DNA of 60,128 nt, filler included, from Asterionella formosa (Eukaryota): the NCBI GenBank assembly GCA_002256025.1. It is 6 parts of 6 records of this genome, joined end to end, with 100 filler letters (N's around TTAATTAATTAA, not from the genome) between each part and the next. Parts side by side here need not be neighbours in the genome. Positions count along the whole stretch, not along the records: positions 1 to 9,957 come from NKIB01010031.1; positions 10,058 to 20,009 come from NKIB01010042.1; positions 20,110 to 30,047 come from NKIB01010053.1; positions 30,148 to 40,084 come from NKIB01010055.1; positions 40,185 to 50,112 come from NKIB01010056.1; positions 50,213 to 60,128 come from NKIB01010074.1. One strand, 5' to 3'. Both the position numbers and the translations under genes were made by a program. Below, in pieces: positions 1 to 56,314 of this stretch (position 1 is the stretch's first letter; the number at the start of each line of letters is the position of its first letter). A model generated the notes under the pieces. It was not told where the DNA came from. It searched no databases and saw only the letters and a program-made list of their open reading frames with translations.

Positions 1-196
1 ACTGGTACCTGGTACAGGCACACCTGGTACAAAACTCTGAACACAGGTAACTTTATCGTGATAACACGGCTTGAACGATTACTATCCCCGATATACCGGT
101 ATCATCACATCATCCATCCATTACAATCCTCTGTTTATAATTGCTTGTGGTCGAGATTACAACCTCTGTACCCGTTGCCCCGTTGTTACTTACGTA

Positions 197-1510
197 ATGA
201 GAGCAACAACATTAGCATCATTGGAGACTGATGATAATGATAATGATGGTAATAATGATGGAATTCCGAATGGAATCGGCTCACCCTCCTCTCCACTTTT
301 AGTATTGCCATCCGCAACTGTAGCATCAATCAGCAACAACAACAGCAACAACAACCACAACGAGACCATCCCAGAGGTGCTTATTGCTCGAAAGCGTCCT
401 GCTTGTGAAGTGTTTGATCTCCCACCATGCGCATCCAGTGATGGATTGGCGGTTACGAAACAAACACCGGTAGAGAGCACTGGAGGGACAGCATGTAACA
501 CAGCAACGACTCCTGACGTTGACGTTGACACCAAGACCAGTAAAGACTATTACTTTGATTCCTATGCTCATCATGCTATTCACGAAGAAATGTTAAAGGA
601 TGATGTACGTACGCGAACCTACGAAACAGCTATTCTTCAGAACAAGCACCTCTTCCAAAACAAAGTGGTGCTGGACGTTGGATGTGGAACTGCCATTTTA
701 AGCATGTTTGCCTGCCAAGCAGGTGCCAAACATGTCATTGGCGTGGATTGTTCCAGTATCATTCACAAAGCTCAACGAATCGTTGAATTGAATGGCTTTG
801 CTGACAGAATTACGCTAATCCAAGGAAAAGTGGAAGAGATTGAGCTGCCAGTCACACATGTAGATATTATTGTTTCCGAGTGGATGGGATACTTTTTGTT
901 GTATGAAAGCATGTTGGATACAGTCCTGTATGCAAGAGATAAGTGGTTGGTCCCAGGAGGGATTATCTTTCCAGACAAAGCGACAATGTACATTTGTGCA
1001 GCTGAAGATGGTCAAGGCAAAAGAGATAGAATTGCCTTTTGGGAAAATGTATATGGCTTTAATATGATGCCCCTGCAGGAGGTGGCACTGCAAGAGCCTG
1101 TTGTTGATGTTGTGGCTCCAGATGCAATTGTGACAAACTCTGTTGCATTCTTGTCATTAGATATCTTAACTTGCACCAAGGAAGACTTGAGCTTTGAAGC
1201 AGATTTTGAACTGGAAGTGCAACGTAATGACTTTCTTCATGGCTTAGTGGTATACTTTGAGTGTGCCTTTACACAAGTTCACAAACCAATTGGGTTTTCG
1301 ACAGCACCCTTTGCTCGATACACACATTGGAAGCAAACCATGCTTTATCTGAAAAAAACACTGACCATTTGCCAGGGAGAACGAGTTAAGGGATCATTGA
1401 AATGTAAGCCTAATGCCAACAACAATCGAGACTTGGATATTGAGTTGTCTGTCAAGTTCGATGGTCAATACAGTAAAATGAATTCAAAGTCCGATTATAA
1501 GCTAAGATGA
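197..1510 (+). CDS. PRMT1: Type I protein arginine N-methyltransferase (PRMT1-like)
   Basis: DYYFDSYAH..IHEEMLKD, SAM motif VLDVGCGTAILS, double-E loop VSEWMGYFLLYE, THW loop YTHWKQT. First in-frame ATG at 197 (track start 71 is TTG). Confidence 0.95.
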   Translation: MRATTLASLETDDNDNDGNNDGIPNGIGSPSSPLLVLPSATVASISNNNSNNNHNETIPEVLIARKRPACEVFDLPPCASSDGLAVTKQTPVESTGGTACNTATTPDVDVDTKTSKDYYFDSYAHHAIHEEMLKDDVRTRTYETAILQNKHLFQNKVVLDVGCGTAILSMFACQAGAKHVIGVDCSSIIHKAQRIVELNGFADRITLIQGKVEEIELPVTHVDIIVSEWMGYFLLYESMLDTVLYARDKWLVPGGIIFPDKATMYICAAEDGQGKRDRIAFWENVYGFNMMPLQEVALQEPVVDVVAPDAIVTNSVAFLSLDILTCTKEDLSFEADFELEVQRNDFLHGLVVYFECAFTQVHKPIGFSTAPFARYTHWKQTMLYLKKTLTICQGERVKGSLKCKPNANNNRDLDIELSVKFDGQYSKMNSKSDYKLR

Positions 1511-1920
1511 TTACTTATATTATGTGCATGCCTTTCAATTTGTTTTGTTTAATTTGGTGGAAATGAAAGATACCAGGTATGGTACTGTTGGTACAAATGT
1601 CACTGCTGACATCAGACTATCAGTTCAGATTGTACCTTCAGTTGACACCATCTGCCATGGCAGATGCTTGAGGAATTCTCAGGCATGGACAGGATCATAT
1701 TGTTTTGTTTATGATGAGTTGAAATACACAGAAATTCCTGATTCCCAATTTGGTAATGAATGAGGAGGTGCAGTACAAAATGATTGTTGTCCTTGATTAT
1801 CGATCACCATGGGAACTTGCTCTGCCAAGAACTTACCGGCATGATATACTACCGGTAATAGCCTGTAAACCTTGAGACATTGGTAAAAAGAATATTCAAC
1901 GCCAAACGTGCAAAAACCCG

Positions 1921-2802
1921 ATGGACTTGATCGAGGGTAGTTCGTCCTCGTCAGAGAGCGTAAACAGCATTAGCAGCAGCAGTAACATTAGCGAAGATGA
2001 AGGGAGCGAGAATCAACGTTCTATTCCTACTACCGCTCATCATCATCTAACGTCGACGGCATTACCCAATAATAATACAGCTGATAGTATTAATAAACCA
2101 AAGAGCAGCATCATCCTCATTGACGCCGATGATAAAGATAAATCTGCCAGCAACAAGGACGTGTTTATCAGGACTACTCCCCACACTCGTGGCAATTGGT
2201 CTGGGCATGTGTTTTGTCAAGTACATCATCAAGATCAAGAAGAAGCATCATCATTCATGATTCAGGGCTTTCGAAATGAACTTGCTCGAGTGGGGTGGAC
2301 AGGAGCAATAATCCTGCATGCAAAGGACGACTTGCATGTTTCTCTATCAAGACCATTTGTACTACAACAGGCTAACATAGAAAACTTTGTTCGAGAATTG
2401 ACAAATCAATTAATGGGGGTTCCGAAAACAACACTTCATGTGATGAGCTGCTACCAAAATAAACATCCGCTCCTCCTTGTCAATGACTCTGGCACTAGGT
2501 CCTTTTGGGGATGGTCCTTGTCGACAAATCCCGTCATGCAACACATTATTGCATGCGTTGACAGGGCACTTGCCAAATACCAACAACCTGCATACTATGA
2601 CCCGCCTTTACTACACGTGAGTTTGGCATCCATACCCGGGGTGGTCCCACCCGAGTTCTCGACAGAGAGGATTGTTGATTGGATGAATATGAGCACTGAT
2701 ATTTGCGATGAGGAAGGGATAATACTACCCAATCCGGTTCCAGTGGAGCAGGTTATTTGCACATTTGGAACTACGAAGAAATACATCATTTCATTGTCAT
2801 GA
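1921..2802 (+). CDS. USB1: U6 snRNA phosphodiesterase USB1-like (2H phosphoesterase)
   Basis: Two HVSL motifs (LHVSLSRP, LHVSLAS), N-terminal PH.RGNW, and P.YY.P before the second HxS. Confidence 0.88.
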   Translation: MDLIEGSSSSSESVNSISSSSNISEDEGSENQRSIPTTAHHHLTSTALPNNNTADSINKPKSSIILIDADDKDKSASNKDVFIRTTPHTRGNWSGHVFCQVHHQDQEEASSFMIQGFRNELARVGWTGAIILHAKDDLHVSLSRPFVLQQANIENFVRELTNQLMGVPKTTLHVMSCYQNKHPLLLVNDSGTRSFWGWSLSTNPVMQHIIACVDRALAKYQQPAYYDPPLLHVSLASIPGVVPPEFSTERIVDWMNMSTDICDEEGIILPNPVPVEQVICTFGTTKKYIISLS

Positions 2803-3122
2803 GAAAGGTTGAATGACTAGATTTGGAACAAATCAATCTTACCTCGACTACATTTTTTGTGAATTATGAACGCTGAGCGAAATCCATGACTATTAATTCT
2901 TTCCTTCCAGAGACACCATGCCTTTTGACCATTACATGCCTGTCTGTGATCGCTGGCCCTGATAGCAGGCATGAACCAATTCCTTCATATCTTGCAAAAC
3001 AAACACAATGTGCACTATGGTAAAATGACGAAATACTTCTATACTATAAATTTACACCCCCGGTCCCCAGCAATAAGAATCAATGAAACTTGGTTCAATT
3101 GTATACCATCTCTCTCTTTCTC

Positions 3123-9957: not shown

Positions 9958-10057
9958 NNNNNNNNNNNNNNNNNNNNNNNNNNNNNNNNNNNNNNNNNNN
10001 NTTAATTAATTAANNNNNNNNNNNNNNNNNNNNNNNNNNNNNNNNNNNNNNNNNNNN
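9958..10057. other. Artificial scaffold spacer (44N-TTAATTAATTAA-44N); same spacer at 20010-20109, 30048-30147, 40085-40184, 50113-50212
   Basis: Identical 100-nt six-frame-stop linkers. Flanked pieces are 9957, 9952, 9938, 9937, 9928 and 9916 nt, i.e. length-sorted. Confidence 0.97.
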
Positions 10058-10187
10058 CTTTCTCACGCCGCTCGTCTGCAGATTCTTCTGCTATATAAAT
10101 CCTGTCTATTTCCGTTTAGACATTCCTCAGACTACCTAGTCTTCGGACACCTGTCGACATCAACAGCCTAACAGACACACTCTGACA
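10058..10187 (-). mobile_element. Partial LTR (first 130 nt) of the TRIM-like family seen at 29506-30047
   Basis: Near-exact reverse complement of 29918-30047; begins TGTCAGAG at 10187 and is cut by the scaffold end. Confidence 0.85.
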
Positions 10188-13006: not shown

Positions 13007-15524
13007 ATGCATTCCTATTTTTACACCGCCATCTCAGTTCTGTTCTGTACACTTCATATATTCTGGGCTGCCGCAGCTAGCTCTGCCCCTGTCCGAGGAA
13101 AAGTAAGTAGGTTCAATCGGAATGCTGCAAGCCATTTCATGATTTCCAAGGAGCTTATTCCCTCTTTTCAATTTTGACAATAAATAGAGTTATCTTGATT
13201 TTGTCCAGGTCGGCTACGATTTGTTTGGAACTCCGGCTTGGAACACAACACAGAAGGTCGAGTTTGGAACGGCGGTCCGGCTCTCCTCTGCGAATGGAAA
13301 TATCCTTGCGGTTGGTGCACCTCATCACAGCTACAACTTTTCCACCGCAAATCCTGCTAATCTCAACGACGAAGGTGGAGCTGTCTTCCTCTACAAATTT
13401 AACGGGACTGATTGGAACTTGCTCTCCTCTTTCTTTGGCGACCCCGGCGAACAGATGGGTGACTACCTCGCTCTCTCTGCTGGTGGATCTCGCATTGCCA
13501 TCCGCCGCTACAACAACACCCTCAAAAGCATCAATCAAGTTGAGGTATATGGCATATCTATCAACGGTACTACTACGAAGCGAGGCTCAAATTTGTCATG
13601 CGGAGCCAATGGTAATTCTGTCTCGTTATCCCCTTGCGGCAGTCGAATCGCTGTGGGCTGCCATACTTTCAACAGCGGACGAGGATTGGTAGAGATATTT
13701 GATTGGAGTGCTGGTCATGCAAACTGGGTTTCCATCGGAAAAATCCAAATGAATGAAACGCTCAATAACAATGCCTTTTTTGGATGGAGTTTGTCCTTCG
13801 ATGCAACTGGTAATCGTCTTGCTATTTCTGCTCCGAAGTACGACTGGAAGCGTGGTTTGGTTCGAGTTTACGATTATGTTGGAGGTAGCATTTGGAATCA
13901 AGTCGGCGCTGACATTCGTGGTTTAAATGAAGGAGAAATGTTCGGTTTCTCCATGGACATCTCTGGAGATGGATTGTCTGTTGTTGCCGGTGCACCGCTA
14001 ACTAATTTGAGTGGAATTTCCTTTTTCTGCGGAGCAGTGTCCGTCTTTGGCCTTGATAATGGTACCAGCCTTTGGAGACCGATCGGAAAACGCGTCGCTG
14101 GTGTTAAGACGTTGGATCGTTTGGGTCGATCCGTTTCTATCGCTCGGAATGGACGTCGCATTGCAGCCAGCAGTTATCTCTTTGGGCGAGGGGACGTCAA
14201 ACTTCTAGATTTTGTAGGTGGTCAGTGGGTGACTACTGGTGCAATCACAGGAACTAGCAACCAAGATCGTTTTGGTTTCGGATTGCTGAGTGTCACGTTA
14301 ACCGCCGATGGAAGTCGTTTTGCTAGTGGCTCCGTATGGGAAAACAACGCAGCTTTAATTTCGGTTGGTCGAGTTCGTGTATATGATGATGTTACTGCAT
14401 CCAATACTACACCTTCCATATCCCCATCCATTATTAAAAGTTCTTTTCGAAGTACTTCGCCCAGTGACACTGTCAACAGTTTGACTGCTCATCTGGGCAT
14501 TCCATTATCGAATCCAACCGAAAAATTAGAGCCTTCGGACTTCCCTACAATCGTTGAACCCACTTTACCAATGTTTCCGCCCTCCGCATCCTTCCTTACG
14601 CCGACTGATTTTCCATCGGCTAACTCGCTCATGACGACACTCCCCACACTTGTACTTTCTAAATTTGATTGGGATCTTGAACGTATAGGCGATGCTGTTG
14701 TTTCTTTCAGTGGTTTAACAAGTGACGCAGAGATTACTTTGAACTACAACATCTCAAATCGCCTCCCTGTGATAACCGTGTGGGATAAAAATTGTTTTGC
14801 ATCGGTGCTGCCCTCTACTGTTGGCGTTACTTCTCAGATCACTATCGAGTCACCTACGCATTCCAACCTTGAAGTTTCCCTGAATGTAAAGCAAGACACC
14901 ATTGTCGGAAGTGCTCTTTGGAGTGCTGATGGTTTTGGTGTCGGATTCGTCAACTTGTGCGTCCGTGTCGACCTTGTCCTCGACGATCTCAACTTATCCT
15001 CTGTGAATTTCTACGAGCAAAAGATCTACGTTTCCATTGGGCTTCAGCAGGGTTTTTCTGTTGTAGACATTAATCTCAATCGGGACGAAGCCAACACGAC
15101 AAATTACAAAGTCAATGTCAATTATGACATCCTTGCCTGCCAATGCAATGAATATTTCATCTGCGTCAATGACGTTCTGGTGCACGGTTCAGATGTCTTC
15201 ATCTGTGTGTACTCCAACACTTCAAACGTCAAAGTTGCTGAGATCTCCGATTTGACCTTCCGTCAGGACGAACTCTCTTTTTCACCTATATTCAATTTTA
15301 CTGAAGATGCCATCACTACGGTTGTTGTGACGCCGCAAGGTGCCTTAATTCGCTCACAAATGAGGTCTATTTTCTTTGGAAATCTCGTGACGGGGAACGT
15401 TTTCGTTGAGGGAACCGCAGTTTTGTCTTTTGCAGAAGGCAGTTATCGTGCTCTTTATACTTCTCGCTTTCATGAGAGCACCGCGCCATCATCCCGAAAT
15501 TTCAGACTTACGATGATGGGGTAA
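13007..15524 (+). CDS. Secreted FG-GAP-like beta-propeller protein, paralog 1 (exons 13007-13102, 13188-15524)
   Basis: Signal-peptide exon, phase-0 intron 13103-13187 (GTAAGT..AATAG), repeated FG.S..LS.DG..IAVGAP...G.V.VY blades, S/T/P stalk, Cys-containing C-terminal domain. Confidence 0.82.
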
Positions 15525-17783: not shown

Positions 17784-20009
17784 ATGTGTCGCAATGTTTT
17801 TGCCGCTCTTTCCGCGGTTATCATCGCCGCCCAAGCTAGCTCTGCTACTGCTCATAACACTGTACGTATGCAAAATTGAGTGCACTGCAAACCATTATTT
17901 AACTTGTCAAGCTAATCCTCTCCTTTCGTGAAATCAACAGCGTTATCTTACCGCTATTGAATTCGGTCGGGTCGGAAATGATTTGTTTGGCACTCCCAAT
18001 TCAAACGTGACAAAAAAGGTCGAGTTTGGAACGGCGGTTCAGCTCTCCTCTGCTAATGGAAACATCCTCGCGGTTGGTGCACCTCATCACGGCTATAACT
18101 CTTCCACCGCAAATCCTGCTAATCTCAACGACGAAGGAGGAGCTGTCTTCCTCTACAAATTCAACGGAACGGATTGGAACTTGCTTGCCTCCTTCTTTGG
18201 AAATCCCGGCGAGCAGATCGGTGACTACCTCACAATCTCCGCTAGTGGATCTCGTATTGCCATCCGCCGCTACAACAACACCCTTAAAAGCATCAATCAA
18301 GTGGAGGTGTATGATGTCGCTGTTACAGGTACTGCGACTAAGCTTGGCTCCGGGTTGTCATGTGGTGCCAATGGGAATTCTGTCTCGTTGTCTTCCAGTG
18401 GCAGTCGCGTCGCGGTGGGCTGCCATACTTTCAGCAGCAACCGTGGATTGGTCGAGATCTTTGATTGGAATGTTGGTCTCGCAAACTGGGCTTCCATCGG
18501 AAAAGTCCAAATGACTGAAAATACCACTGCCTTATTCGGTTGGAGCGTTGCCTTCGACGACACTGGTAACCGTCTTGCTGTTTCTGCCCCTAACTACGAT
18601 CGTGGTGATGGTATCTTAAAACGTGGTTTGGTCCGTGTTTACGCTTTTGCTGGAGGTAACACTTGGGATCAAGTTGGCGCTGACATTCGTGGCTTGACTG
18701 CAGGTGAACAGTTTGGCTTCTCCATGGATATATCTGGAGATGGATTGTCTGTTGTTGCCGGCGCGCCTAATAGCCAAGTAAGTGGAACTACCTCGTTTTA
18801 TGGAGCAGTCTCCGTCTTTGGCCTTGATGCTGGTACCAGTCTTTGGAAACCGATTGGTGAACTTGTTGCTGGTGATAATCTATTGGATCGTTTTGGTCGA
18901 TCTGTTTCTATCTCTCAAAACGGAAGGCGCATTGCAGCCAGCAGTTATTTTGCGAATGCTGGCCGAGGGGTTGTCAAGCTTTTTGATTTTGAAGGTGGTC
19001 AGTGGGCGACTACTGGTGCAATAACCGGAACTGGCAACCAAGATCGTTTCGGTTTCGGATTGCTAAGTGTCACATTGACCGCAGATGGCAGTCGTGTTGC
19101 TTCTGGTTCCGTGTGGGGAAACAATACAGAATCAATCGAGGTTGGTCGGGTTCGTGTGTATGACGATATCACTGCACCCAGTGCTGTTCCCAGTTCGTCA
19201 CCGAGTATTTCTGCCTTTGTTATCGCAGCCTTGACCCCGACGCAATTACCTACTTCGCCGCCTACTCAAGTCCCAACCTTGAATCCAACTGTGATCCCGT
19301 CTCCCATCCCAACCTCGCTACCAACTCAAGGACCTACTCTGACCCCGATCCCTATCCCTATCCCAACCACTCTCCCAACTCCAGGACTTACTCCTGCCCC
19401 GACCCCTATCCCAACCTCTCTCCCGACTCCAATCCCAACCTCGCTTCCTTCTCCAAGACCTAGTTCAGCCGCGACTTCTATCCCAACTTCCCTTGCGACT
19501 CCAGGACCAACCTCGAGCCCAGCTCCTTACCCAACCACTTATCCGACTCCGCGGCCGACAAATCTACCAATTCCAAGCCTAGACTCTCCTCCGACTCCAG
19601 GACCTTCAGCCCCAACTCCTATCCCAACCTCTATTACGATTCCACGACCAACAAATCTACCAATTCTAAGCCCAGGCTCGTTTACTACGCAAGCACCAAG
19701 TCCTAAACCCATTGTCTCAGGCTCACCTGGACCCTTTGCTCCCACTACGTCAATCCCAACAATTATACTTTCCAAATTTGACTGGGATCTTGAACGCAAT
19801 GGAGATGCTGTAGTTTCTTTCGGTGATTCAACCAACACGAACGAGATTACTTTGAATTACAACATTTCTAATCGTTTCGCTGTTATAACCATTTGGGATG
19901 AAAGTTGTATCACACCTGTGTCGTCCTCTGTCATTGGTGTTTCTTCCCATACAGTCATCGAATCATCTACACATTCCAACCTTCAAGTCTCCCTGGATGT
20001 AAAGCAAGA
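17784..20009 (+). CDS. Secreted FG-GAP-like beta-propeller protein, paralog 2, 3'-truncated (exons 17784-17861, 17941-scaffold end)
   Basis: 26-aa signal exon, phase-0 intron 17862-17940 (GTACGT..AACAG), close similarity to paralog 1, long PT-repeat stalk. Confidence 0.82.
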
Positions 20010-20244
20010 NNNNNNNNNNNNNNNNNNNNNNNNNNNNNNNNNNNNNNNNNNNNTTAATTAATTAANNNNNNNNNNNNNNNNNNNNNNNNNNNNNNNNNNN
20101 NNNNNNNNNGCATCCGTATACTTAGATCCTATCCACTGTATAATACTATCATATTAACTGTTGACTTTAACTGTATACATTAAACGACAAACACATATAT
20201 TAATTAACATACTTTATGATTGCTTGATTTATTTTCTATTATGG

Positions 20245-21751
20245 CTTGGTAACACTTGCGTACATTATTTATCGTATTTTATTGTCATTGTCTTATTTTT
20301 AAAATGATCATATTTTGATCAAAATTATATCATAAACATTTTATAAAATCATCATAATTTTATTATCAATGTATCATAGCTCTGTGATATTTTTTATTCA
20401 ATATTACGTATCATACTTTGGTGATGTATGCATCGATGTAACCTTATCATGATATCACAGTATCATCTTATCAATCATGATGAGATGATCGGGAAGCAAC
20501 TGTATTCTGCATCGTGCTACAGGGTATATTATTATATCACGCAATTTAGTAGCGAAGTCACTCCGCCTGTTATGTACTAAAGTCGACAGTGCACATACCG
20601 GGTACCAGTACTCAAACGCTAATCAGGTTTGAGGCAACGGACAGTGGTTCCAACGAGCGAATGATGATACCACGGGTACCAATTTTTCCAACGAAAGAAC
20701 TTGTCTCTCTATTGATGAGGATGACACGGACACGGACACCGACTTTTTCAGGAGCAAACAACAATGAAGAGACCCACTTGTCGCTCTATTGATCATGTTA
20801 ACAAAGATGCGGACAAGTTCAACAGTGAATACAAAGAACAACATACCATTGAAAACAAGTCGACAGTGTGTGCACGCACACGCCAAGCAAGTTTGAGGCA
20901 ACGGACCATTCCAACAAGCAAATGACGATACAGATATCAAATTCTTCCTATGAGCAAACAACAATGAAAAGAGCCACTTGCTTTCGCGCTCTTGATGGTA
21001 TCAAAGATGCAGACAAGTTCAATAGTTAATTCAAGTACAGTATACCAAATGCAGAAACGAGCGAGCGATATGAAAATGAAATACATTCTAATCAGAATCA
21101 TTCTATAACTATAGCTATGTGGACAGTAGTCTGTTACGCAGATTTTCGTATCTCCTTCTATGCTGAATCTCAATAGTAGATGTAGTATCATGTGAGAATT
21201 GAAAATGTCAACGAGAGCAAGTAGAATGTGTTTGTTTACGGGTTGATTGCCGAGATCGTCATGCTGAAGTGGACGAAACGGATATACTTTGTGCGCTGTG
21301 TGCGGAAACATTACGAGTTCGAATGGTTTATTCTCTCCTGTAAACTCTTAATTAAATGATTATGAACAAAGCAAGGTTCACTGCACATGACGATTACTCG
21401 AAGATATAAAGATCACTTGACCAAAAAATTGAAGACGCACGTTATCGCAAACATTCATTCTGCTTGTCATTATTTCGTTGTTGTTGCAAAAATCGGAGTG
21501 ATGAGGGGCAGATGGAAATGACGAGCCAAATTACATTACTTGAACTGGTACATTATCCTACCAAGAAATTCGAATACAGGAATCAAATAGAAAAAATACA
21601 TATAATGATTAAATATATGTAGTCAAAAGGGTTACTATTTAAATTACGAGGGCATTTATCACAATTATTAGATGATATAACGAAAAATTATGATCAGATG
21701 ATCATAATCCTATGATGCATCATGGAAATATTATGGTTTTTATTTGCAGAC
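20245..21751 (+). repeat. Unclassified dispersed repeat (about 1.5 kb) with internal tandem duplication
   Basis: Colinear with 56315-58015; ends sharply at TTTATTTGCAGAC; internal units start AGTCGACAGTG at 20581 and 20858. Confidence 0.9.
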
Positions 21752-21752: not shown

Positions 21753-22010
21753 CTAGAGAGCCTCTGCAATGGCCTTGGCTCCGTCAACACCAATTGAATT
21801 ACCTTGGAGAGAAAGTTCAGTCAAGACAGTATTGTCCTTGAGAGCCTCTGCAATGGCCTTGGCTCCGTCATCACCAATTGAATTACCACCGAGAATAAGT
21901 CTAGTCAAGACAGTATTGACCTTGAGAGCCTCTGCAATTGCCTTGGCTCCATCATCATCAATTGAATTATTAGAGAGTTCATGTTCAGTCAAACTTGGAT
22001 CATTCTGTGA
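21753..22010 (-). pseudogene. RNI-like (NLRC3-type) 28-aa LRR gene fragment
   Basis: Three NSIGDDGAKAIAEALK.NTVLT.L repeats, cut at the boundary of the dispersed repeat. Confidence 0.8.
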
Positions 22011-24469: not shown

Positions 24470-24700
24470 AAAGTGAAATCCAGACTTTATTGTCCTTGAT
24501 TGCCTCAGTTATGATGGCCTTGGTACCCTCATTACCAATTGAATTACCATTGAGATATAGCATACTGAGATCATGCATCATCACCAATTGAATTATAACT
24601 GAGACTAAGTTCAGTCAAACTTGGATCATTTTCTTTCAACCATTTGACACATCTTTCCAATTCTGTTACTGTTTTCCCTCCAGATGATAGTCAAACCATT
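24470..24700 (-). pseudogene. Second degenerate RNI-like LRR fragment
   Basis: Shares GTTCAGTCAAACTTGGATCATT and AATTGAATTA units with 21960-22005 (NDPSLTELS..NSIGDD). Confidence 0.65.
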
Positions 24701-26054: not shown

Positions 26055-26058
26055 TTAA

Positions 26059-27115
26059 GGTTCCTGCATTTCAACCCTAAGGCAAAAATTCAAATATTGC
26101 TTAGGGTTGCCGAAATTCCCTGGAACTAAGAATTCATAGGAGCTTTTTTTGAATGACATGATTCCGTTTGAAATATTCAAATCAGTGGAAATTAGAGCAT
26201 ACGTACATAGATTCCTTTTTGAATAGCTAAATATATATATATAAATTGTGCATCACTGTATATATATGTACCAATGATTAATTTTCTTACATACAACCTG
26301 GCGGCTTGGCAAATATTTGAAGTGCACTCTAGGAGTGGTACACGTGTGTCAAATGATAATCATCTACCAGTACCCATAGTGGATATGGTAACAGATACCG
26401 GGGTACCAGTGATCATCCAAGAAATTTTTAAATGTGTATCCAGTGTGGCCAATGTGAGTTTGCAAGACCTTGCAAACTGGGCCAATCAAATATCGGTATG
26501 TAATTGAAGTTGACCAATCAAAATATTTATAGTGAAGCTGGCACATACAATGGAATTTTATGTACAGGAGATTTTACCACTAATTATTTTAGCACAAGAG
26601 TACCATTCCAATGATGACATTTTGGCAATTAGTGATTCTGATTCCGACATTTTGGAGACGATTGAAAAGGCTGATTTTGTCAAATTTTTGGGGGAGGACA
26701 GCTCAATGTTTGCTGGGTTTGAAGAAGAGTTAAGTACGTAGGTAATCTTCTTATAGCCCCAGAAGTTAACTTTTGGCAAGAAACTGCAGAAAGGAACTTC
26801 GGTTTTTTACTAGGCCAAATAAATGAGTTGGCCTGGTAAAATCCACTATTTTTTCAGCATAGTTTAAAAACCGAAGTTCCTTTCTACAGTTTCTGGCCAG
26901 ATCCTACATACTGACGTTATATAGAGTTGACCAATACCCCTACTTCAATCAATGACGGTATCTAAGCACATGGAAAGGGTGTCCAATGGTGAAAGCTCCA
27001 AGTAGTGGCAAACATATTTAGTTTAGACTGAGAAGTATGTGTTTGATTACCGGTAGTCTGATTCAATATTATTTTTTTAACCCTATCTCTAATCTAGGGT
27101 TGAAATGTAGGAACC
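26059..27115. mobile_element. Non-autonomous Kolobok-like TIR element B (1057 bp)
   Basis: 21-bp TIRs GGTTCCTGCATTTCAACCCTA / TAGGGTTGAAATGTAGGAACC (1 mismatch); TTAA on both sides (26055-58, 27116-19); GG...CC ends. Confidence 0.85.
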
Positions 27116-27274
27116 TTAATGACAAGGTTCCCCTCAACAACCTGCACCTATCATAGAACATAGGTATACCAGTATATGTACCACCGTACATGCACTTACA
27201 ATGGAAGTATCACACCAGCAAGAACAATAGTATGCTGCCTTTTCTCATCATTGACAATATGTATCTGTAATATC

Positions 27275-29505: not shown

Positions 29506-30047
29506 TGACAGAGTGTGTCTGTTAGGCTGTTGATGTCGACAGGTGTCCGAAGACTAGGTAGTCTGAGGAATGTCTAAACGGAAATAGACAGGATTTATAT
29601 AGCAGAAGAATCTGCAGACGAGCGGCGTGAGAAAGATCTTGACCGGTCATTCCAGGGCAGTACTGGAGCGCGCTAGAGTTGCGCCATATATTTCAACATG
29701 GTAGCGGGCTCGTTAGTACAAGTGGTACGAGGAAGAACGTGAAAACCAGAGGTCGACAGTTCGAGTCCATCAGCAAGAACAGAAAGAGAAAAGAGAAGAG
29801 AAAAAGAAAAACAGAGACGTAGAAAACGAGAAGGCACTATGAGAAATCCTGTAGGAAAGGATGTGTCGAGCATACACATTAGGATGATGTGGTATGTCGA
29901 GCATCAACAGGGGAGGGTGTCAGAGTGTGTCTGTTAGGCTGTTGATGTCGACAGGTGTCCGAAGACTAGGTAGTCTGAGGAATGTCTAAACGGAAATAGA
30001 CAGGATTTATATAGCAGAAGAAGCTGCAGACGAGCGGCGTGAGAAAG
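29506..30047 (+). mobile_element. TRIM-like miniature non-autonomous LTR retrotransposon (3' LTR cut by scaffold end)
   Basis: 5' LTR 29506-29698 (TG...CA, 193 bp), PBS TGGTAGCGGGC at 29699, 219-bp non-coding interior, PPT AGGGGAGGG 29909-29917, 3' LTR from 29918 with 2 mismatches in 130 nt. Confidence 0.88.
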
Positions 30048-31185: not shown

Positions 31186-32416
31186 TCAAAAGAGGAAAAT
31201 GTGGGTACAAATTTATTTTGTAAAATACCGGTACCAGGTAGTACTCCTGGATTACCTACCCCCACTGCAGTATAAAGTCTAGATGGTGATGTCTGCATCA
31301 CTCTTTCCGAATCCTCTTTACGATCACTTCATGATGCAAGCAGCCCCCGTGTCAGTAAATATGTATACATGGCTATATATAAATCAATATTTTGACCAAG
31401 ACAAGCATATATCATTTCTCAGATTTACGATTAAGAATGACTCCAGGTGGCTACGTATACATAGTCCGTACCGGTATCCTATGATATTGACATTTAATTA
31501 CGGTACTATTTCCGGGAGTAAGTACACACAAGGACGAGAATGCCCTCAATGCCTGTCTGCAATGACCCCCCATGAAGGATCGTGAAATACCGGTAGCTAT
31601 GCAAATCTAGACTGCATAGGCCTGTAGTCCATTTGTTCCTGGAACCGATTGGTCATGATGACGGCAGGTACTAACAAAAGTCCAAGGACTGTATGCATAT
31701 GTGTTAAGACGACCATTGTGATCACACTCCTGGTACCAGTTCCAGGTACCAGGCACCAGTACCAGTAGGCCGGCAAACACACTTGACCGGCCTACACATC
31801 CACCGCCCATCAACAGGCACGCACCCCCGCCCAGCACCATGCTTAACGATCAGAATCATCAGACCATCATTGACTGACCGCGTACTTACGTACATCTTCC
31901 AGTAGAACCTACATACCGGTGCTGCTCCCGTTGGTCCAGTAACAGCAGAGGCATTGACAATTAAAGTTTATCCGGCGACATTTTGACTGCTAGTGCGTAC
32001 GATTTTCTCCGGTTTAATTGTCCTTTGCAAAAGCTACAGATCCTTGGAAAGTTCAACAGGAACGTACTATAAAATTTACTTAAAAGTTTATATTGATACA
32101 TATATAGAAACATATAAAACTTGGTTTTGTGCTTTGTTTTCGATTAGTTTACTTCTTTTGGCCATCTCAAGCAAAATGGAGATGCATGAGGACCCTTCTC
32201 TCTTACCAACACCTCTTCTCAACAAGCATGTTAGGAAGTATATAACAGTAGAACAATGGCAACTTGCCATTAATTATGGATTGTGCAACCATGAAAGTGG
32301 AGATGACGTGGGAAGAAAACAAGAATGGTGCGCTCATTTTGATGGTTCATTTAATTGTAACCACTAAAGACAGTAAATGGATAGACTGAGATTCTATCAT
32401 GTTATAATTATGATAG

Positions 32417-32665: not shown

Positions 32666-33419
32666 ATCATGTTATAATTATGATAGTTACATGGTTATTC
32701 TGTTTCCTGCAAATATTTAAGTGGCCAGCCAATTGTTAATTCTACCGTAGGATTTGCCCAACAGGAGTATCTGCTGTACACCCCCCACTCCCCTTCATCC
32801 TCTGTGATGGCCGTTAACACATGTGTGTACAGCATCTGATGGATATTGTGGTTATATTTTGTCTACCGCATTGTATGCTATGCATATGGTGACCGGTATG
32901 GTGTCTCAACCGACAAGTAGCCACATGTATGAGGCATTTGTGTTCATCAGTGATAGATGCTGGTACCTGGTACCAGGTTGTCTATGAATATTCTATACAT
33001 AGACAGGCCTTTGTCGGAATCGGTATACCGGTACCAGGAAATCTGTGTACCAGGTGCTGTATAATAATATAGGTAATATATACGCCACACGTGATGTGCG
33101 TCCGGCAGATAGAGTGGTATGCCTATACAATACTGGCTGTTTGTAGGCTGCAGCGCCGGAATATTTGTCTGGTCGGTGATGCAATGGTTTTATGAGTTCA
33201 TGTGGATTTTGGAAAACGCGATGTCGGCGTTTGTTGGTTTTGTTGTTGTTTTGATGGAATGAAAGGGCATCGTTGAATAAGGGTTATAGCGGAACGGTAC
33301 GTCGTCGTGGAGGTGGAGCGTACTGAGCAAATAAACGCGATTTCAATGGGCTGGTGTTGCTCATGCGTTGCCATCGTTCAGGTGGGTAGAGGTGGGATAC
33401 AACCAGAGTCTTTCACATT

Positions 33420-42668: not shown

Positions 42669-42958
42669 AAAAGTCCTTTTTAAGTATGACTTATTTTGTT
42701 GAATCGTCACGCGTATTCATGATGAAAAATGTGTTACGAATGTAATGATATATGCTGCAGGTCACAGATACTGGTACCAGGTAGTACCATGATCCATTAA
42801 ATATTCCAGTGGTAACGTGAAAAAGTATACTGAACTTTGTTTTGAGGAGGTAACCTTAAGAAAGAGAATTACCAACGTCTGTGTTGTAGGATCAACATTT
42901 TATGCCGAGCATCCATGTGAAGTCTATGAAAGTCAATCATAGGCTACAACAAACTGTA

Positions 42959-49101: not shown

Positions 49102-50212
49102 GGTGGTGTTGTGATGCCACTGCCTGTTTACTTCAGTATATTGTCAATCTTGAGTGTGACAAAATTTAATAACTTCCCATCGACAAAAACTGATTTTCAA
49201 AACAGAGGGCGGAGCAAAAGCAAGCATGCGAGCAAGGGAGTAACAACAAGGAGCGTACGTGAAAGTACCATGCTCTAGTATTACCGGCTATGTACTGGTA
49301 ACTGGGAAAGTAGTAACCGCCGATGATGCACTCAACGGGCACCCTACATACATATGATCATTTCCCCTCGTGCCCTGATAGTTCGGCTTTCCAAGTTGGA
49401 CTTTCCACTAAAATCATCTTTATGAATGAATATCATCAATATCATACGTAAAACCATGTATTACAAGCTACGGGCAAGATTTCGTCGATGACGTGCTGAA
49501 GGCAATTCATGCGTAGAACCTCCACGCACGATAGTGCAGCAATACTCTGCCTTCATGATGATCTGCCACACAATGAGCGTCGGACTTGCCAACGACTTCC
49601 GGTCAAAGTGTCCGAATTAACCAGTACAAAGGTATGTGGGGGAAAAGTAATTCGAACCAGGCACCGTTAACGGTACCAGTACAGTGCATGCACAACAACC
49701 ACTCAATACGGCACTGCCTCGTGGAGTACCAGGAAAACTCATAACTCGGCATCGTGGTACGTGCGTGCCACCTACCTCGGTTTGCTATCATGCCGGTAGT
49801 AGTAGACAACCTGGTACTGGTACCAGGTACCAGGTGGGTACATGCTGAAGCAGTATCAAACTATAGAAGTACGACAGATAGCAGTACCAGGTGAAAAATC
49901 TAACTAGAAGTAGTAGTATTTGTTGAATATATGAGCTAATTAATCTTATGTACAACTTGTTTTCCCAAGTTGACATCAAAATATACAACAGGTGTTAGTC
50001 AAGTTCTGATATATTTGATATAACCCTAACCCGATATACATCTGTATCAATGTGCAGGATCGCTCGCTCTCCCACACTTAGGGGAAAACCTTTTACCTAT
50101 GAAAAGGTTTGANNNNNNNNNNNNNNNNNNNNNNNNNNNNNNNNNNNNNNNNNNNNTTAATTAATTAANNNNNNNNNNNNNNNNNNNNNNNNNNNNNNNN
50201 NNNNNNNNNNNN

Positions 50213-50278
50213 CCTAACCCTAACCCTAACCCTAACCCTAACCCTAACCCTAACCCTAACCCTAACCCTAACCCTAAC
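50213..50278 (+). repeat. Telomeric repeat (CCCTAA)n at scaffold start
   Basis: About 11 perfect CCCTAA units in chromosome-end orientation; degenerate units at 50321 and 50428-50446. Confidence 0.92.
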
Positions 50279-50492
50279 AGATGCTCTATGGGGATGGCGC
50301 CTAGAGGCGTCGTCCCTTTTCCCTAACCCTATCAGACGAGGGATGTACAAAAATAATCCCAATTTCTACACATTTACTTCTCATGAATATCATCGACATT
50401 TTCCTTTACTTACGCAGCAGGAGTCATCCCCTGACCCTAACCCTAATTGTATAGGATCAACCTGGTTGTCGTAGACACATTACAAACATTTA

Positions 50493-53360
50493 TTAGTGAT
50501 TTGGAGAGCCCCGAAGTCTCCTTCCTTCACTAATAATTGAAATTCCATCACATTTGCTGGGATTGCACTTCAAAACATAGCGAAAGTGACACAATTTAGA
50601 AACATTTCCGATGCTGTTGCAAGCCTCAGGAATCACTATTGGTGATCCATCAGCCTGTCCAAAAGAAACTCCATAAGCATACAGATCTACAATCGTAGCG
50701 CCATCAACACACATAGCAATATATTCATTGGGAATGCCACACTTAAGGGTCTGGTGACAAATGAGCTTGTTGTCTGCAGCAATGAAGTCTGTTGCTAGCC
50801 ACTCACTTTTACAATCTTGGGTCACAGAAAAGGTTATAGTACCTCCATTTTGAGACATGATCTTGATTGGATTCACTGTCATCTTCTTAATGCAATTGTC
50901 AACAGGAATATCGTGTATGTCCGTGGACTTTGACTGCGACTCACAGTTTAATTCTGCATTTGTTGAAGCACCGAGACCATGTGTCACAGTCCCCAGTAGG
51001 TGGCGGGAACTAGTAGGATAACCATTATCTTTGGCAATCGGCCCTGGTGATGAACCTGTTGGAACCGGAGTAGGTGCCAATGTTGGTCCAGCAGTTGGTA
51101 CTTTTGTCGCAATGGGCAAGCTGCTAGGTGATGTGCTTGGATTCACACTCATGCTTGGAAAATAACTTGGCACACCAGGTGTAGGTGTTGGCAAAGGTGT
51201 TGGTCTTGGATTTTCTATCTCAGGCTGTGGTGGAGCAGTGGATATAGAAGGCAATGGTCCTGGTGTTGGACCTGGCGTTGGGACAGGCCATGGCGTTGGG
51301 ACAGGCCATGGCGTTGGTGGCGGTGTTGGTCGCGGTGTTGGTGGAGGTGTTAGATCCAAAGGAATAGGCATTAACGAAGGAGGATTAGTATCACACTTGT
51401 CAGGTTGAGTTTTGCTCTTGCTCCCTTTACTGCCCTTACTTGATCCTTTGCTACCTGATCCTTTGCCACCTGATCCTTTGCCACCTGATCCTTTGCCACC
51501 TGATCCTTTGCTACCTGATCCTTTGCTCTTGGCTTCGGAAGTTTCAAATGAAGAAGCAGTGGTTCCTTTACTGCCGCCTTTTCCGTTATCAGCATCAGCG
51601 GGTGAGGGGCTAGCACCAGTGGTAAAATTGTTTGGTGTATCGAGAGTAGCGGGTGAGGGGCTAGGACCAGTGGTAACACTGTTTGGTATACCGGGAGTGC
51701 TTGCTGGCTGACAATCTGCTAGGTCGTTACTTGATCCTTTGCTGCCTGATCCTTTGCTGCCTGATCCTTTGCTGCCTGACCCTTTGCTGCCTGACCCTTT
51801 GCCACCAGATCCTTTGCTACTGGCTCCGGGAGTCACAACTGGAGAAGCAGCGGTTCCCTTGCTGCTGCCTGATCCTTTGCTGCCTGATCCTTTGCTTCCT
51901 GATCCTTTGCTTCCTGATCCTTTGCTGCCTGATCCTTTGCTACTAGCTCCGGGAGTCGCAACTGGAGAAGCAGCGGTTCCCTTACTGCTGCCCTTTCCGT
52001 TATCAGCATCAGCGGGTGAGAGCTGAGGACCAGTGGTAACAATGTTTGGCATATCAGGAGTGCTGGCTGGCTGAAAATCTGCCGGGGGGCACATTGAATC
52101 AGGCAAAATCACAACTGAAGCACTCTCCAAAGTATCGCTTGAAGTAGAATTCTGGGTAATCTCATAACCAGTGTCGGAGCCTGTCTTGGAGCCTGTCTTG
52201 GAGCCTGTCTTGGAGCCTTTCTTGGAGCCTTTCTTGGAGCCTTTCTTGGTTTTGCCCTTCTTTTTTCTTGCACGTTGGAGCTGCTCGCCGTAAAAATGAG
52301 GCGTGTACTCAAATCCTTCTCTGCTACCACTTTTGCCCAATATGCCAGACTTGCTAGAGAAGCTCGACGTGTTATTTGTGTTCGTGTTCGTGTCGAATGA
52401 GGTGCATTGGTAGTTCCACAATGGGGCAGTATAGGATTCGCCAGGACAAACAAAAATCACGTTCTTGCAAGCAGGATGGTCGGAGGGAAGAATAGTGCCA
52501 TCAAAGCTATCCGAACTTGTCGAGCCTTTGCTCCCTTTACTTGGGGATTTGCTCAATGTGCGAGTCCCGGACTTTCCTGACGAAGATTGGTCTTTTCCAG
52601 ACTTTGACTTACCGCTATCGCTTTCAGGAGTCGTGTCAGACAGGATTTCGCCTGGATATTGGCATCTGCAAACATATGCATCTGTTGCATAGCCGCTGAC
52701 GTCACTGTCATTGACTCCCATACTTCCCTTTGATTTACTTCCGGTCAAGACACGATGATATCCAAAGCCAGCAATATCATTTTTGGTCCTTATTCCTTTC
52801 ACCATTTCGTCATCGACCACGGTAAGGTGGTCAGACGATTTCGTGAAGCGAGTGGCGGCACTCTCGCCGTTGTTGACAGTGTTGGTGTTCTTTGCAACAG
52901 AAGCAATTGGGCCTCCTCTTGGATCAAACAATGATCTATACTTCGAATAGAGCGAGGCAGAGGTGGAAGAGATGAAGTCGGGGAGCAAAGAATGGTCGGT
53001 ACCAGAGGGGGTCAAGGAATTCCCCACATCCTTATCTGCACTCTTGCCTTTGGCTTGTTCGTTGAATAGCCCCTTAATGGTCATGTCATTGGATCCAAAG
53101 CTCTTTTCCCGCATTTCGGCTCCGTCAGCAAGCGATTCAAAGCTCTTGGGCTGTGTCTTGGATCCGTCAGCAGGTAATACGGTCAATGTGGTTCCAACTG
53201 CAAGCTTACCAGAAGAAGCAATGTACTCATCGCCAATCATTTGGCCTCCAAGCTGTGCAGCTGGCTCTGCATTACTGGACAAACAAATATATAAGAGCAA
53301 AAGACTACAAGCCAAAAACTCAACTTTGTTTTTTCTCCTCACAACAACCATGCCACTCAT
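50493..53360 (-). CDS. Secreted Ser/Lys/Gly-rich, Pro/Thr-repeat protein (cell-wall or EPS candidate)
   Basis: Signal peptide, RxL motifs (HRVL, RHLL, RRL), (GSKGS)n arrays, KKGSKKGSKTGSKT cluster, PTP repeats, Cys-rich C-terminal domain. Confidence 0.85.
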   Translation of the reverse strand: MSGMVVVRRKNKVEFLACSLLLLYICLSSNAEPAAQLGGQMIGDEYIASSGKLAVGTTLTVLPADGSKTQPKSFESLADGAEMREKSFGSNDMTIKGLFNEQAKGKSADKDVGNSLTPSGTDHSLLPDFISSTSASLYSKYRSLFDPRGGPIASVAKNTNTVNNGESAATRFTKSSDHLTVVDDEMVKGIRTKNDIAGFGYHRVLTGSKSKGSMGVNDSDVSGYATDAYVCRCQYPGEILSDTTPESDSGKSKSGKDQSSSGKSGTRTLSKSPSKGSKGSTSSDSFDGTILPSDHPACKNVIFVCPGESYTAPLWNYQCTSFDTNTNTNNTSSFSSKSGILGKSGSREGFEYTPHFYGEQLQRARKKKGKTKKGSKKGSKKGSKTGSKTGSKTGSDTGYEITQNSTSSDTLESASVVILPDSMCPPADFQPASTPDMPNIVTTGPQLSPADADNGKGSSKGTAASPVATPGASSKGSGSKGSGSKGSGSKGSGSKGSGSSKGTAASPVVTPGASSKGSGGKGSGSKGSGSKGSGSKGSGSKGSSNDLADCQPASTPGIPNSVTTGPSPSPATLDTPNNFTTGASPSPADADNGKGGSKGTTASSFETSEAKSKGSGSKGSGGKGSGGKGSGGKGSGSKGSSKGSKGSKSKTQPDKCDTNPPSLMPIPLDLTPPPTPRPTPPPTPWPVPTPWPVPTPGPTPGPLPSISTAPPQPEIENPRPTPLPTPTPGVPSYFPSMSVNPSTSPSSLPIATKVPTAGPTLAPTPVPTGSSPGPIAKDNGYPTSSRHLLGTVTHGLGASTNAELNCESQSKSTDIHDIPVDNCIKKMTVNPIKIMSQNGGTITFSVTQDCKSEWLATDFIAADNKLICHQTLKCGIPNEYIAMCVDGATIVDLYAYGVSFGQADGSPIVIPEACNSIGNVSKLCHFRYVLKCNPSKCDGISIISEGRRLRGSPNH

Positions 53361-53972
53361 ATTTTAATACGCTATGTTTGTGAACGGAGAAATTTTAAAA
53401 TGGTATCTGATCTTTTCGCGTGAATGTGTTAATCAAAATTTTGATTGCTCTCGATAGTATTGATCAATGCACAACAACAGTGTTACTCGTTCTGCATCAA
53501 ACTTTGCTAATTTTGTGATGCTTCGAATGGACTTGACAGTAAAATGTGTTAGGTGCCCTATTTTTCAACGGTTGTGAAACAGATCCTCCGTTGCACACAA
53601 TTTTTTATCCAGAAATATTTCCTCTTGTTGTTCGGCATATATATCTATGCGTTGGATTTCAAACTCCATTGTCTGAAACGTGAATGACAAACAAGGAGCA
53701 AATTGGATTTAGGGGATCCCATGCCAGGGCAATACTTTAAGTGCGTTGAGAATAGAAAAACTTGCCCATTGACAAAAAACAATTATTTTCTTATATATAC
53801 ATCATTCAACGCTAAGGGCCGTTCTCGACATCCCCAAATTTCAAGGCCTAGGCACTGGCTCTGGTACGCGAACGTCCATACCCGAAATATAATCAAGTCT
53901 TACCTAAAGGATGAATATTGAACAATCTTTAATGAACATGCGGTACCAGGTACCAGGTACTGATTACTGGTA

Positions 53973-55488
53973 CCACCTAAAAACTGAGAATTATCCTTTT
54001 TTAACCCTTTGTTACGACTCAATTTATTTTAGTCCGATTACATGATGATGTTGAAGCAAGTACGAAGGCTGTTGTAGCTCATCCTATCAGGTCCTACAAG
54101 ATCTAAATGTTACCAGGATGAACTCAACATTTCTTGAGACATAAAAGTTACTAATGCCATCGTTTTGCCGTATTAGGACTCTCAGTATATTGGTTTTTAA
54201 TACATACCAAAGGAAATTTTAATATTCTATTTTTTCCTGACCCGCCAATTGTTGCCACAAAATCTTTTTTTTGCCACAATATTATTAGTCCGTTACAAAT
54301 TACTACCCTTTATTTATTGTCCCTTTCGATGTTTTCTTCCTGTAAATACCGGTAGTCGGTTTCGACGATACTCCAGATTTATTACCGGTAGTTGGTTTCG
54401 AATCAAATGCAACGTCAGTTATATATTTTAGTGACTGTTTAAGTAATATTTAATTATGTCTGTTGCGTAACAGACAACCACTTGTTGTTTGACAATCCTC
54501 ATACAGAAAATATGTAGGCCATGCAATAACTGCTGGCGATGAAGCTGTGAACTGGTGGTACCTACTAGGTACCACCCAAAAACTGCGAAGTTTCTTAAAT
54601 GATAAAATTCGAACCAAGTACGAACTTTACTGTAGTCGATGGAACGGGGATAGTTATCATTTAATCAGTTCGAAAGTAGAACATAGAGTTATGGAGATCT
54701 AAGCAATTTAGTCTTACCCATTTTGACTGGTAACGTTGACTGTCAGTATATATTTTTTAATCTATATATGAAGATATTTTACCCCCAAACCGGTTTTTTT
54801 AAACTCGATTGTACCACAAAAACTAATTTCTATTACTTTTGTTGATCCTATAATTAGCGTTACCAGCTACCGGTGCCAGGTACCAGGGTTTTAAGTGCCG
54901 ATGATAACAGTACTGGCAGCATGTTTGTCAAGTATTTGTTCAGACCACGAATATCATTCTTCAAGTTCTCATCTGTCCGGTAGTCCTCTCCTTGTTTCAA
55001 TTCATTTCACGGGTGATTTTTGTGATTTCATGACAAATCCTCGTATGTAGTGTTTCAGGTCTTCACGCCGAGAGGTTGCAGCTGATGTTCTCCATTTAAG
55101 GAGAGGAGAATGCAAAATGACATCATTTATATTTTACCATAACAAAAAAATCTATTCGGACACTGAATGAATCTACCGACAGAAATACTTTCTAATACCT
55201 GAATACATATATAAAAGGTGATGCCAGCTGAATGGAGTAAAAAATTATTTGGCTGTTTAATTTCATTTCTCGTCGACAGCAACCTTTGGGACCAAATACA
55301 GAAGTAACACTAGCTAATTGACGAGTTCAGAGCACGATCATTATTGGTTACTACATAAATCGCTACAACATTGCTTGAATAATTATGTTCGTATCTAGCA
55401 TATTTAGCCCAAATCGTGAATTTTACTCGATTTAACGTTGACTCTCAGTTAAAAATCTTTCAAACGTTGACTCTCAGTTTTTAGGTGG
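53973..55488. mobile_element. Non-autonomous TA-targeting (Tc1/mariner-like) TIR element(s)
   Basis: TA|CCACCTAAAAACTGAGA ... TCTCAGTTTTTAGGTGG|TA perfect 17-bp TIR; second left-TIR variant CCACCCAAAAACTGCGA at 54572; subterminal AACGTTGACTCTCAGTT twice near the right end. Confidence 0.8.
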
Positions 55489-56314
55489 TACCGGTTAAGT
55501 ATCATGATGATATTGCCGATTGGCAAAGCCATGACAATGACGAAAAAGTACGGCGCACATGCAAAGAGGCGCCTGATGAAACCATTTGGTTTTACGAGAC
55601 AGAGAAAATTAAGGATACAACAGAACACACATCAGTTACAGATACAACAGAAAACACATAACCCGCAATGAATCTGAGCGAACATTGTTTATTGTCTGCA
55701 GAATCATTGCAGCAGTTTATAGCTGTAGTAAATGCAGTGAAAAGTTGAGATTGCAAGCGAAAGACAAAAGGAAATTATATAGTAGTAGCAAATCAAAAAA
55801 GCCAAAGAATAAAATTTTAATTTAATATTATCAAACATGCTTTAACTTGCTTCGCTTGTGCATTTCAACCTGCATCAACAATTCAATGACTTCCTGCAAG
55901 CAGGCCTACCAAGCGACATAAGCATTCTCCAAAAGAATGATTAATTTATGCAGCCATCAAGTCTTGCAGCAAATGAAATGATGGAACACTTGATGCCATG
56001 GTGTGTAACTGTGTTGATCATGATGCATGTATCAAAATTCTTTCAAACACACTTGAACTCACGAAAACCTTATCCGTGAACACAATAAAGAATTCCATAA
56101 ATTGGTTGAGCCTTTGGTAGGATGCTACTACAATCTAGAACCAGGGTGGTACATGCAAAAAATTCAACCCCCAATGCAACCTTTTGAGACCGTAGTGAAA
56201 GCTAGTGTACTAGCAATCAACTAGCACTGTGTACAAACGTAAACTAGTACAAGCTACCCTGGTACCGGTATTCTAGCGATACAGAATGTAGCATGGATGT
56301 AAATTCTATGATGT

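Follow-up and report, generated by a model that had tools for sequence, protein, structure and literature searches.

Abundant TA-CC..GG-TA words in the non-coding DNA of Asterionella formosa as probable excision scars of two TA-targeting transposon families

When a Tc1/mariner element excises, its non-transferred strand is cut a few bases within the element, and after end-joining the terminal bases remain between two TA dinucleotides (PMC6943129). Stowaway footprints in a Triticeae beta-amylase intron combine 2–4 bp of one end with 1–2 bp of the other, and one Stowaway element is described as having entered the same TA next to an earlier footprint (PMC1925063). Here, a stretch of Asterionella formosa DNA of 60,128 nucleotides (the window; six scaffolds of about 10 kb with N spacers between them) was analysed together with the genome of 68.4 Mb in 15,436 contigs. 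A preliminary description of the window had read intergenic words of the form TA-CC..GG-TA as footprints of a transposon with CCA..TGG ends. The present results indicate that these words are likely to be scars left by the excision of elements from two distinct TA-targeting cut-and-paste families, and that the likely scars of the CCA-ended family recreate its own target, so that repeated visits would build mixed chains. The parts of this picture, namely footprints and re-insertion beside a footprint, are known; the feature described here is genome-wide.

The single sites listed earlier are present where they had been placed, on all six scaffolds, with window counts of 18 for TACCGGTA, 7 for TACCAGGTA, 3 for TACCTGGTA, 9 for TACTGGTA and 5 for TACCAGTA. 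Genome-wide, TACCGGTA occurs 28,528 times and TACCWGGTA 26,886 times, compared with 1,718 and 902 occurrences of the respective reversed-pattern controls. With coding status assigned by open reading frame (ORF) length as a proxy rather than from gene models, 39 of 40 window sites or chains lie outside stop-to-stop ORFs of at least 600 nt, and the lone site inside one (94) precedes the first ATG of that ORF (197), which bears out the near-absence from ORFs noticed at the outset. A separate sample of 200 kb was taken from seven contigs, chosen non-randomly as long contigs with a match to a miniature inverted-repeat transposable element (MITE), and was counted on both strands. Its non-coding part (83 kb) holds 62 copies of TACCGGTA (1.8 expected from an order-2 Markov model), 65 of TACCWGGTA (1.1 expected) and 39 of TACTGGTA/TACCAGTA (4.7 expected), with coding counts (72 kb) of eight, four and two, respectively. 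An order-5 model takes up much of the excess (62 versus 49 expected for TACCGGTA and 65 versus 27 for TACCWGGTA), so that the anticipated enrichment over a Markov background is present at order 2 and weaker at order 5. Words of the TACCGGTA and TACCAGGTA types are the top non-coding 8- and 9-mers of this sample, at about 35–60 times the order-2 expectation, and their density is 7–17 times lower in ORFs; for GGTACC, the density outside ORFs exceeds that inside about 5.6-fold.

The spectrum of TA-x-TA words over 259 kb is dominated by the fillers CCWGG (112 observed versus 2.3 expected), CCGG (68 versus 2.0) and CCAG/CTGG (72 versus 9.6), followed by CCAGGG/CCCTGG (18 versus 0.4) and CCSGG, i.e. 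CCCGG/CCGGG (nine versus 0.7). CCA/TGG alone (53 versus 44) and CC/GG (86 versus 92) are not enriched, CCATGG shows no clear enrichment and TACCATGGTA occurs at one site only. The rule proposed earlier, by which each variant equals TA, a prefix of CCA, a suffix of TGG and TA, therefore describes the main words; the CCAGGG/CCCTGG and CCCGG/CCGGG fillers are enriched yet do not fit it, and CCA/TGG fits it without being enriched.

Evidence that the words arise as insertions comes from repeat copies. All-versus-all alignments of fetched repeats gave 828 clustered indels of 3–40 nt, for which the direction of gain was inferred from the majority state among copies. The gains at TA sites comprise 13 CCGG, six CCWGG-type, two CTGG, one CCGGG, one CGG and one mixed double. 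Copies of multi-copy repeats thus differ by 6–7 nt, a TA and one unit gained at a TA, the TA being duplicated relative to the empty allele as in Tc1/mariner footprints, and these empty and filled alleles support the footprint origin proposed at first. A tandem copy could explain none of the 13 CCGG gains and two of the six CCWGG gains. At window position 20596, nine sister copies have a plain TA, 13 have one CCGG unit and four, the window included, have two units; a few other copies are rearranged. Of the 13 polymorphic CCGG events, one has a half-site (GG-TA or TA-CC), versus all six CCWGG events.

This difference in context recurs throughout the genome and separates two classes of scar. The full GG..CC context surrounds 9,910 of 26,886 TACCWGGTA words (36.9%) versus 901 of 28,528 TACCGGTA words (3.2%), and C follows at +1 in 72% of single CCWGG words and 80% of CCA ends, compared with 24% in the background and 22% for single CCGG words; the flank profile of CCAG/CTGG is intermediate between those of the CCWGG and CCGG words. 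Derivation of all variants from CCA..TGG ends is thus rejected on flank context, since TACCGGTA, the principal motif of the preliminary description, lies outside the target context of that family. A 650-bp MITE with CCG termini (301 exact ends) has GGTA flanks at 0 of 45 ends and shows a TA duplication in an empty/filled pair, and 30 of 118 CCGG sides carry the K-W-Y logo of this MITE, versus a background of 15.6% (p = 0.005). Because CCGG words rarely have the GG..CC context and CCG ends are never GGTA-flanked, TACCGGTA is best assigned to CCG-ended elements and sits at ordinary TAs, while CCWGG scars and most CCAG/CTGG scars match the CCA-ended family. The main fillers and their contexts thus correspond to the terminal bases of resident elements; the CCAGGG filler requires a CCAG end, as in loci L134 and L140. 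The single scars of the window, from sequence scans, are as follows.

6–14: CCWGG-class scar; others at 1571, 10423, 10471 and 32964
5553: CCAGGG scar
10510, 25596, 26365, 27167, 31760, 38020, 40425, 46121, 49293 and 49674: single CCAG/CTGG scars
94–101: CCGG-class scar in ordinary TA context; others at 1850, 15932, 25685, 25723, 27048, 29312, 31469 and 31588
33026, 37483, 42499, 44621, 44740, 54347 and 54383: further CCGG-class scars
40383: CCCGG scar

The CCA-ended family is represented in the window by one element, which lies upstream of ORF 50493–53363(−), about 600 bp from its 5' end, and has a perfect 17-bp terminal inverted repeat (TIR) together with the CCA/TGG ends, TA flanks and GG-TA-CC target originally ascribed to it.

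53973–55488: composite non-autonomous CCA-ended pogo-like element; TA flanks at 53971–53972 and 55489–55490, target GG-TA-CC
53973–53989 (+): left 17-bp TIR, beginning CCACC; 161 exact copies genome-wide, control 0
55472–55488 (−): right 17-bp TIR
54572–55488: inner MITE of about 920 bp with its own degenerate left TIR and GG-TA before it; a separate match family (query 614–1516)

Termini in the family are CCACC, CCACT and CCAGT, and full-length copies measure 3.76 kb (L132) and 3.5 kb (L134). Flanking the CCA ends, T is found at −2 in 56 of 62 cases and A at −1 in 58 of 62, with −3 and −4 variable, indicating a TA duplication. Among 24 element pairs examined, 16 have TA on both sides and 11 of these 16 have a GGTACC target (L001 being counted twice); GGTA flanks 46 of 70 TA-flanked CCA ends. 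The target-site logo thus confirms the GG-TA-CC preference suggested for this family. A 779-codon open frame between the CCA TIRs of L134 is the only intact-looking frame seen. The spacing D-x37-D occurs in 102 of the 108 proteins in which the motif pattern matched, three Asp residues are invariant across 63 aligned homologs, the structure model has a predicted local distance difference test score (pLDDT) of 90 and the language-model neighbours of the protein are Atlas DDE_1 clusters (0.97). A sequence search of the PDB did not identify the transposase, and the full ORF gave no Pfam helix-turn-helix match, no search having been aimed at a helix-turn-helix of the CENP-B type. Named homologs of the transposase come from Fragilaria, and others occur in freshwater metagenomes, which fits a freshwater diatom. 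Metagenome relatives have CCA ends next to TA in 45 of 47 cases. CCWGG chains lie directly beside the element ends in L187 and L191, which look like a single element recovered from marine samples; the start of L187 (1–75) is presumably sequencing adapter, which would leave a few bases next to the TIR as the true flank. From the modelled fold and the conserved residues, the CCA-ended family is a putative pogo-like DD37D transposon of the IS630-Tc1-mariner/pogo group with an RNase H-like DDD/E signature. CCA elements often stand directly behind the end of another element, whose GG together with TA makes a half-target (L020:2407, L011, L058:1501, the right end of L191 and window 54558–54572), and such insertions may explain tandem and composite elements like that of the window.

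Scars also occur in clusters and chains, some of them beside elements.

53944–53972: scar cluster beside the element; double CCAGG at 53944–53959 and CTGG unit at 53965–53972, the TA of which is the left target-site duplication of the element
20596–20610: chain of two units, CCGGG + CCAG, within a multi-copy repeat; sisters have plain TA, one CCGG, or CCGGG + CCGG
31226–31240: mixed chain CCGG + CCAGG (sequence scan)
42769–42783: mixed chain CTGG + CCAGG (sequence scan)
49815–49829: mixed chain CTGG + CCAGG in GG..CC context (sequence scan)
56255–56270: mixed chain CCCTGG + CCGG (sequence scan)

The statement that the element abuts a chain holds for one TACTGGTA unit (53965–53972), the double CCAGG lying 5 nt further out, and the chain placed at 32964 proved to be a single exact unit with near-units beside it. 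The one paralog found for the left flank of the window element (L002) bears the same insertion, preceded by a different scar cluster. One copy of the inner MITE has gained a CCTGG unit at a GGTACC, and another (L013) carries, at the next internal GGTACC, a chain of 28 nt that is absent from its sisters. Dense tracts of mixed chains, with up to seven units per chain, were seen in L063, L067 and L070, the last with 33 units in 10 kb. Of the sampled GGTACC sites, 141 of 198 are part of a scar unit. A scar adjoins 17 of 70 CCA ends, compared with none of 45 CCG ends and 1.8% of TAs, and the probability of chain extension rises from 17% to 35%. Neighbouring units are identical in 12 of 58 cases, with 12 expected under random draws; the spacer in GGTACC-N-GGTACC is A or T in 126 of 127 cases and matches a flank at the chance level (18 of 29 versus 18.0 expected).

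Simulations were run 12 times per setting with hand-set rates and a logo derived from surviving elements. Chains of at least three units numbered 0.1–0.2 without re-use of scarred sites and 12–20 with re-use, compared with 14 observed, and settings without target preference gave almost no three-unit chains. The simulations fit with one target retained at full preference or with doubling at weaker preference; pure exponential doubling with the measured logo overshoots and was rejected. Of the original proposal that cycles of insertion and excision grow arrays, the re-use of scarred sites is thus supported, while runaway growth was not shown by the simulations. Regeneration of the preferred target stands for the CCWGG class and fails for the CCGG class.

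These observations could be accommodated by the following mechanism. Excision would leave 3-nt 3' overhangs on the flanks. Base-pairing between two CCG overhangs could occur at the terminal CG and give CCGG on closure, or more rarely CCSGG, CCG or CGG, while CCA overhangs would be unable to pair and would be closed after trimming as CCWGG or CCAG/CTGG. Such a geometry would account for the excess of CCWGG over CCSGG (112 versus nine) and of CTGG/CCAG over CAGG/CCTG (72 versus 20). The filler CCAGGG might stem from CCAG ends that leave a longer overhang, or from a slip, an assignment of low confidence. From a single TA, each scar would make two half-sites, TA-CC and GG-TA; placed in GGTACC, it would yield two full sites. 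Because the scars would in this way rebuild GG-TA-CC, CCA elements could come back to a scarred spot and stack further units in either orientation. The CCGG scars would seed half-sites for the CCA family without rebuilding their own target. An insertion bias towards promoter DNA, together with selection against ORF hits, might produce the upstream, non-coding distribution.

Several results weigh against this interpretation. TA and footprint alleles coexist among repeat copies, but for the three-way allele comparison once envisaged the fetched loci offered no site that combines an element-bearing with a scar-bearing copy. The scars outnumber surviving ends about 100-fold (26,886 versus 161 exact ends of one subfamily), which requires a very high turnover, and the dominant fillers are composites of 4–5 nt, unlike the canonical first or last 2–4 nt left by Sleeping Beauty (PMC6943129). 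Among GGTA-flanked CCA ends the excess of adjoining scars is small (16 of 46 versus 22%, p = 0.05), and simulated doubling at the full logo leaves 134 single scars versus 170 observed. The logo of the CCG MITE covers only part of the CCGG contexts (25% versus 58% at its own ends), and no autonomous partner of this MITE was found. As to the transposase, Pfam gave no transposase match in eight of eight ORFs, and the closest folds to its model, Mos1, SETMAR and Sleeping Beauty, are weak matches (best E value 9.6 × 10−4, template-modelling scores 0.27/0.43). The metagenome relatives have GGTA at only 17 of 45 ends, a weaker bias.

Further searches for informative alleles gave little. A flank search of the 24 element pairs returned one weak, unusable match. 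A gap search, which left out 169 of 194 TIR-less gaps, gave no empty/filled pair for any CCA element; it did give pairs for the CCG MITE and for a TTAA element. Of 26 stretches screened, L070 had the most sites (23); contigs of four public runs aligned to it bridged seven of the 23 sites with no indel on a site, among the pieces and indels listed. These contigs break at chains, so that short-read assemblies may under-count long chains.

Among the rival explanations, the one that survives best, although we consider it improbable, is that host repair or a terminal-transferase-like process adds fixed CC..GG fillers and a TA duplication at breaks without any element, the match to element ends being incidental. 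The lack of an element-to-scar allele pair and the numerical excess of scars over elements speak for it, as does a third class of constant filler, XY-GC-XY, which occurs at many dinucleotides, makes up 95 of 177 clustered 4-nt indels and shows that stereotyped micro-insertion is pervasive. The flanks of each filler class, however, bear the mark of an element family that is resident in the genome and whose termini match, and no repair enzyme that inserts fixed words of this kind is known to us. For the XY-GC-XY class, too, there is a candidate element, flanked by 2-bp duplications other than TA. It is the repeat around site 20596, a TIR element whose termini are C..G (CGTCTG; 467 exact ends genome-wide), and eight of ten full-length copies show such a duplication (one inner duplicate end being dropped). 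This family is a candidate source of the XY-GC-XY and XY-G/C-XY micro-insertions; the latter form fits 179 of 274 3-nt indels, and XY-GC-XY words are 1.43-fold enriched. The filler order, G then C, appears to be the complement of the CGTCTG element ends, as hairpin-type excision would give. No ORF of 200 codons was found in seven CGTCTG pairs scanned. Ends of this family (element size 2.4–6.6 kb) are located as follows.

21752 (−), 34399 (+) and 58016 (−): CGTCTG-ended family ends in the window
L079, L112, L269, L270 and L281–L289: further loci

A second alternative, which we regard as quite improbable, is that the words are promoter elements, i.e. dimeric transcription-factor sites kept by selection, into which the transposon merely lands. 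Its main support is the strong upstream bias: around 52 long ORFs, CCWGG occurs 73 times in 31 kb upstream versus six times in 21.5 kb downstream (about eight times denser; p = 4 × 10−11) and CCGG 29 versus six times. In addition, TACCGGTA and TACATGTA are called high-confidence promoter motifs in Phytophthora (PMC3597505), for which a Tc1 footprint origin of TACATGTA was considered and rejected on abundance and conservation (PMC3520976). The words nevertheless appear as fresh insertions within repeats and MITEs, their several coexisting lengths track element termini, the CCWGG density is flat across 0–600 nt from the ATG and non-TA XY-GC-XY words share the upstream bias in weaker form. Moreover, the pogo element Passer also prefers chromatin at transcription start sites and promoters (PMC9976928), so that the upstream bias fits scar and promoter-motif readings alike. 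Some scars may later have been used as binding sites. The idea that the words act as 'safe landing pads' is not supported, as the scars shift targets out of ORFs but concentrate them upstream of genes.

The least tenable alternative, that chains are slippage microsatellites of GGTACC-W from chance seeds and single words their decay products, is highly improbable and largely refuted as the main source because chains mix units and orientations at random, new units do not copy their neighbour and no CCGG gain is a tandem copy, while the spacer is almost always A/T although C/G account for 24% of the bases next to lone GGTACC, and in 11 of 29 isolated doubles the spacer occurs in neither flank; the two tandem CCWGG gains and homogeneous runs such as three CCAGG are in its favour, and slippage may contribute a minor share of long chains. 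The likeness of the words to Dcm and restriction sites (CCWGG, KpnI and AgeI) is presumably coincidental, as such sites do not arise as TA-duplicating insertions.

Other features of the window include an element of about 1.06 kb with TTAA flanks and GG..CC termini (26055–27119), which we take to be Kolobok-like by its features; a 500-bp relative is inserted at TTAA in L016, where sister sites are empty. Tandem repeats of 84 bp (21753–22004 and 24514–24630), probably leucine-rich-repeat coding remnants, directly follow a CGTCTG element end. A 130-bp repeat, 98–99% identical, lies at two scaffold ends and one internal position (10058–10187, 29506–29635 and 29918–30047). A telomere repeat, (CCCTAA)n, opens scaffold 6 (50213–50278), and ORF 50493–53363(−), which contains tandem repeats of 12 bp and longer and gave no Pfam match, runs towards it. 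The window is gene-rich, with tandem paralogous FG-GAP repeat genes about 85% alike (13188–15524 and 17932–20010, the second with a Pro/Thr-rich repeat region) and a DUF6824 protein, of a type typical of diatoms.

With even chances, in our estimate, the non-coding DNA of this genome is written by the traffic of at least three transposon families (the CCWGG, CCGG and XY-GC-XY scars, about 100,000 marks), with a feedback loop in one of them, the scars of two families making most of its targets (the 141 of 198 GGTACC sites above) and steering it to promoters. Work on footprints usually relies on assays or on a handful of loci; here, the leading k-mers in the non-coding DNA of an entire eukaryote genome behave as footprints that are assignable to element families by flank logos. 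Tens of thousands of natural events would make cleavage geometry, end-joining outcome and target choice readable, scar spectra would document past activity and the chemistry of excision in quantitative terms, and short tandem arrays would have a route besides slippage. The TA-flanked 'promoter motifs' of other stramenopiles (TACATGTA and TACCGGTA) may, if this is true, also be scars, which calls for caution in motif discovery in stramenopile promoters, abundance having been used in print against a footprint origin (PMC3520976).

The open-licence literature, supplements aside, yielded no description of genome-scale or target-regenerating footprints, and the closest systems each share part of the picture. 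The footprints of Sleeping Beauty (TACAGTA/TACTGTA) are alike in the TA duplication around element-terminal bases through 3'-overhang end-joining (PMC6943129); here, the filler is a 4–5-nt composite of both ends, two words alone account for about 55,000 natural sites and the scar of one family recreates its target. The Stowaway case concerns one locus, and the available text names no target regeneration at the sequence level (PMC1925063), in contrast to the genome-wide, multi-unit chains and measured target logo reported here. Passer shares with the CCA-ended family the TA duplication, short TIRs and a DDD transposase and is described with 0–4-bp footprints and the start-site/promoter bias noted above (PMC9976928); it differs in its DD35D spacing, the present family having DD37D, CCA termini, a GG-TA-CC preference and no Pfam DDE_1 match. 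The Phytophthora words TACATGTA and TACCGGTA are likewise abundant TA-flanked promoter palindromes in a stramenopile, one of them identical (PMC3520976, PMC3597505), but are interpreted there as sites for transcription factors, and for TACATGTA an origin as a footprint was rejected (PMC3520976), unlike the excision scars proposed here.

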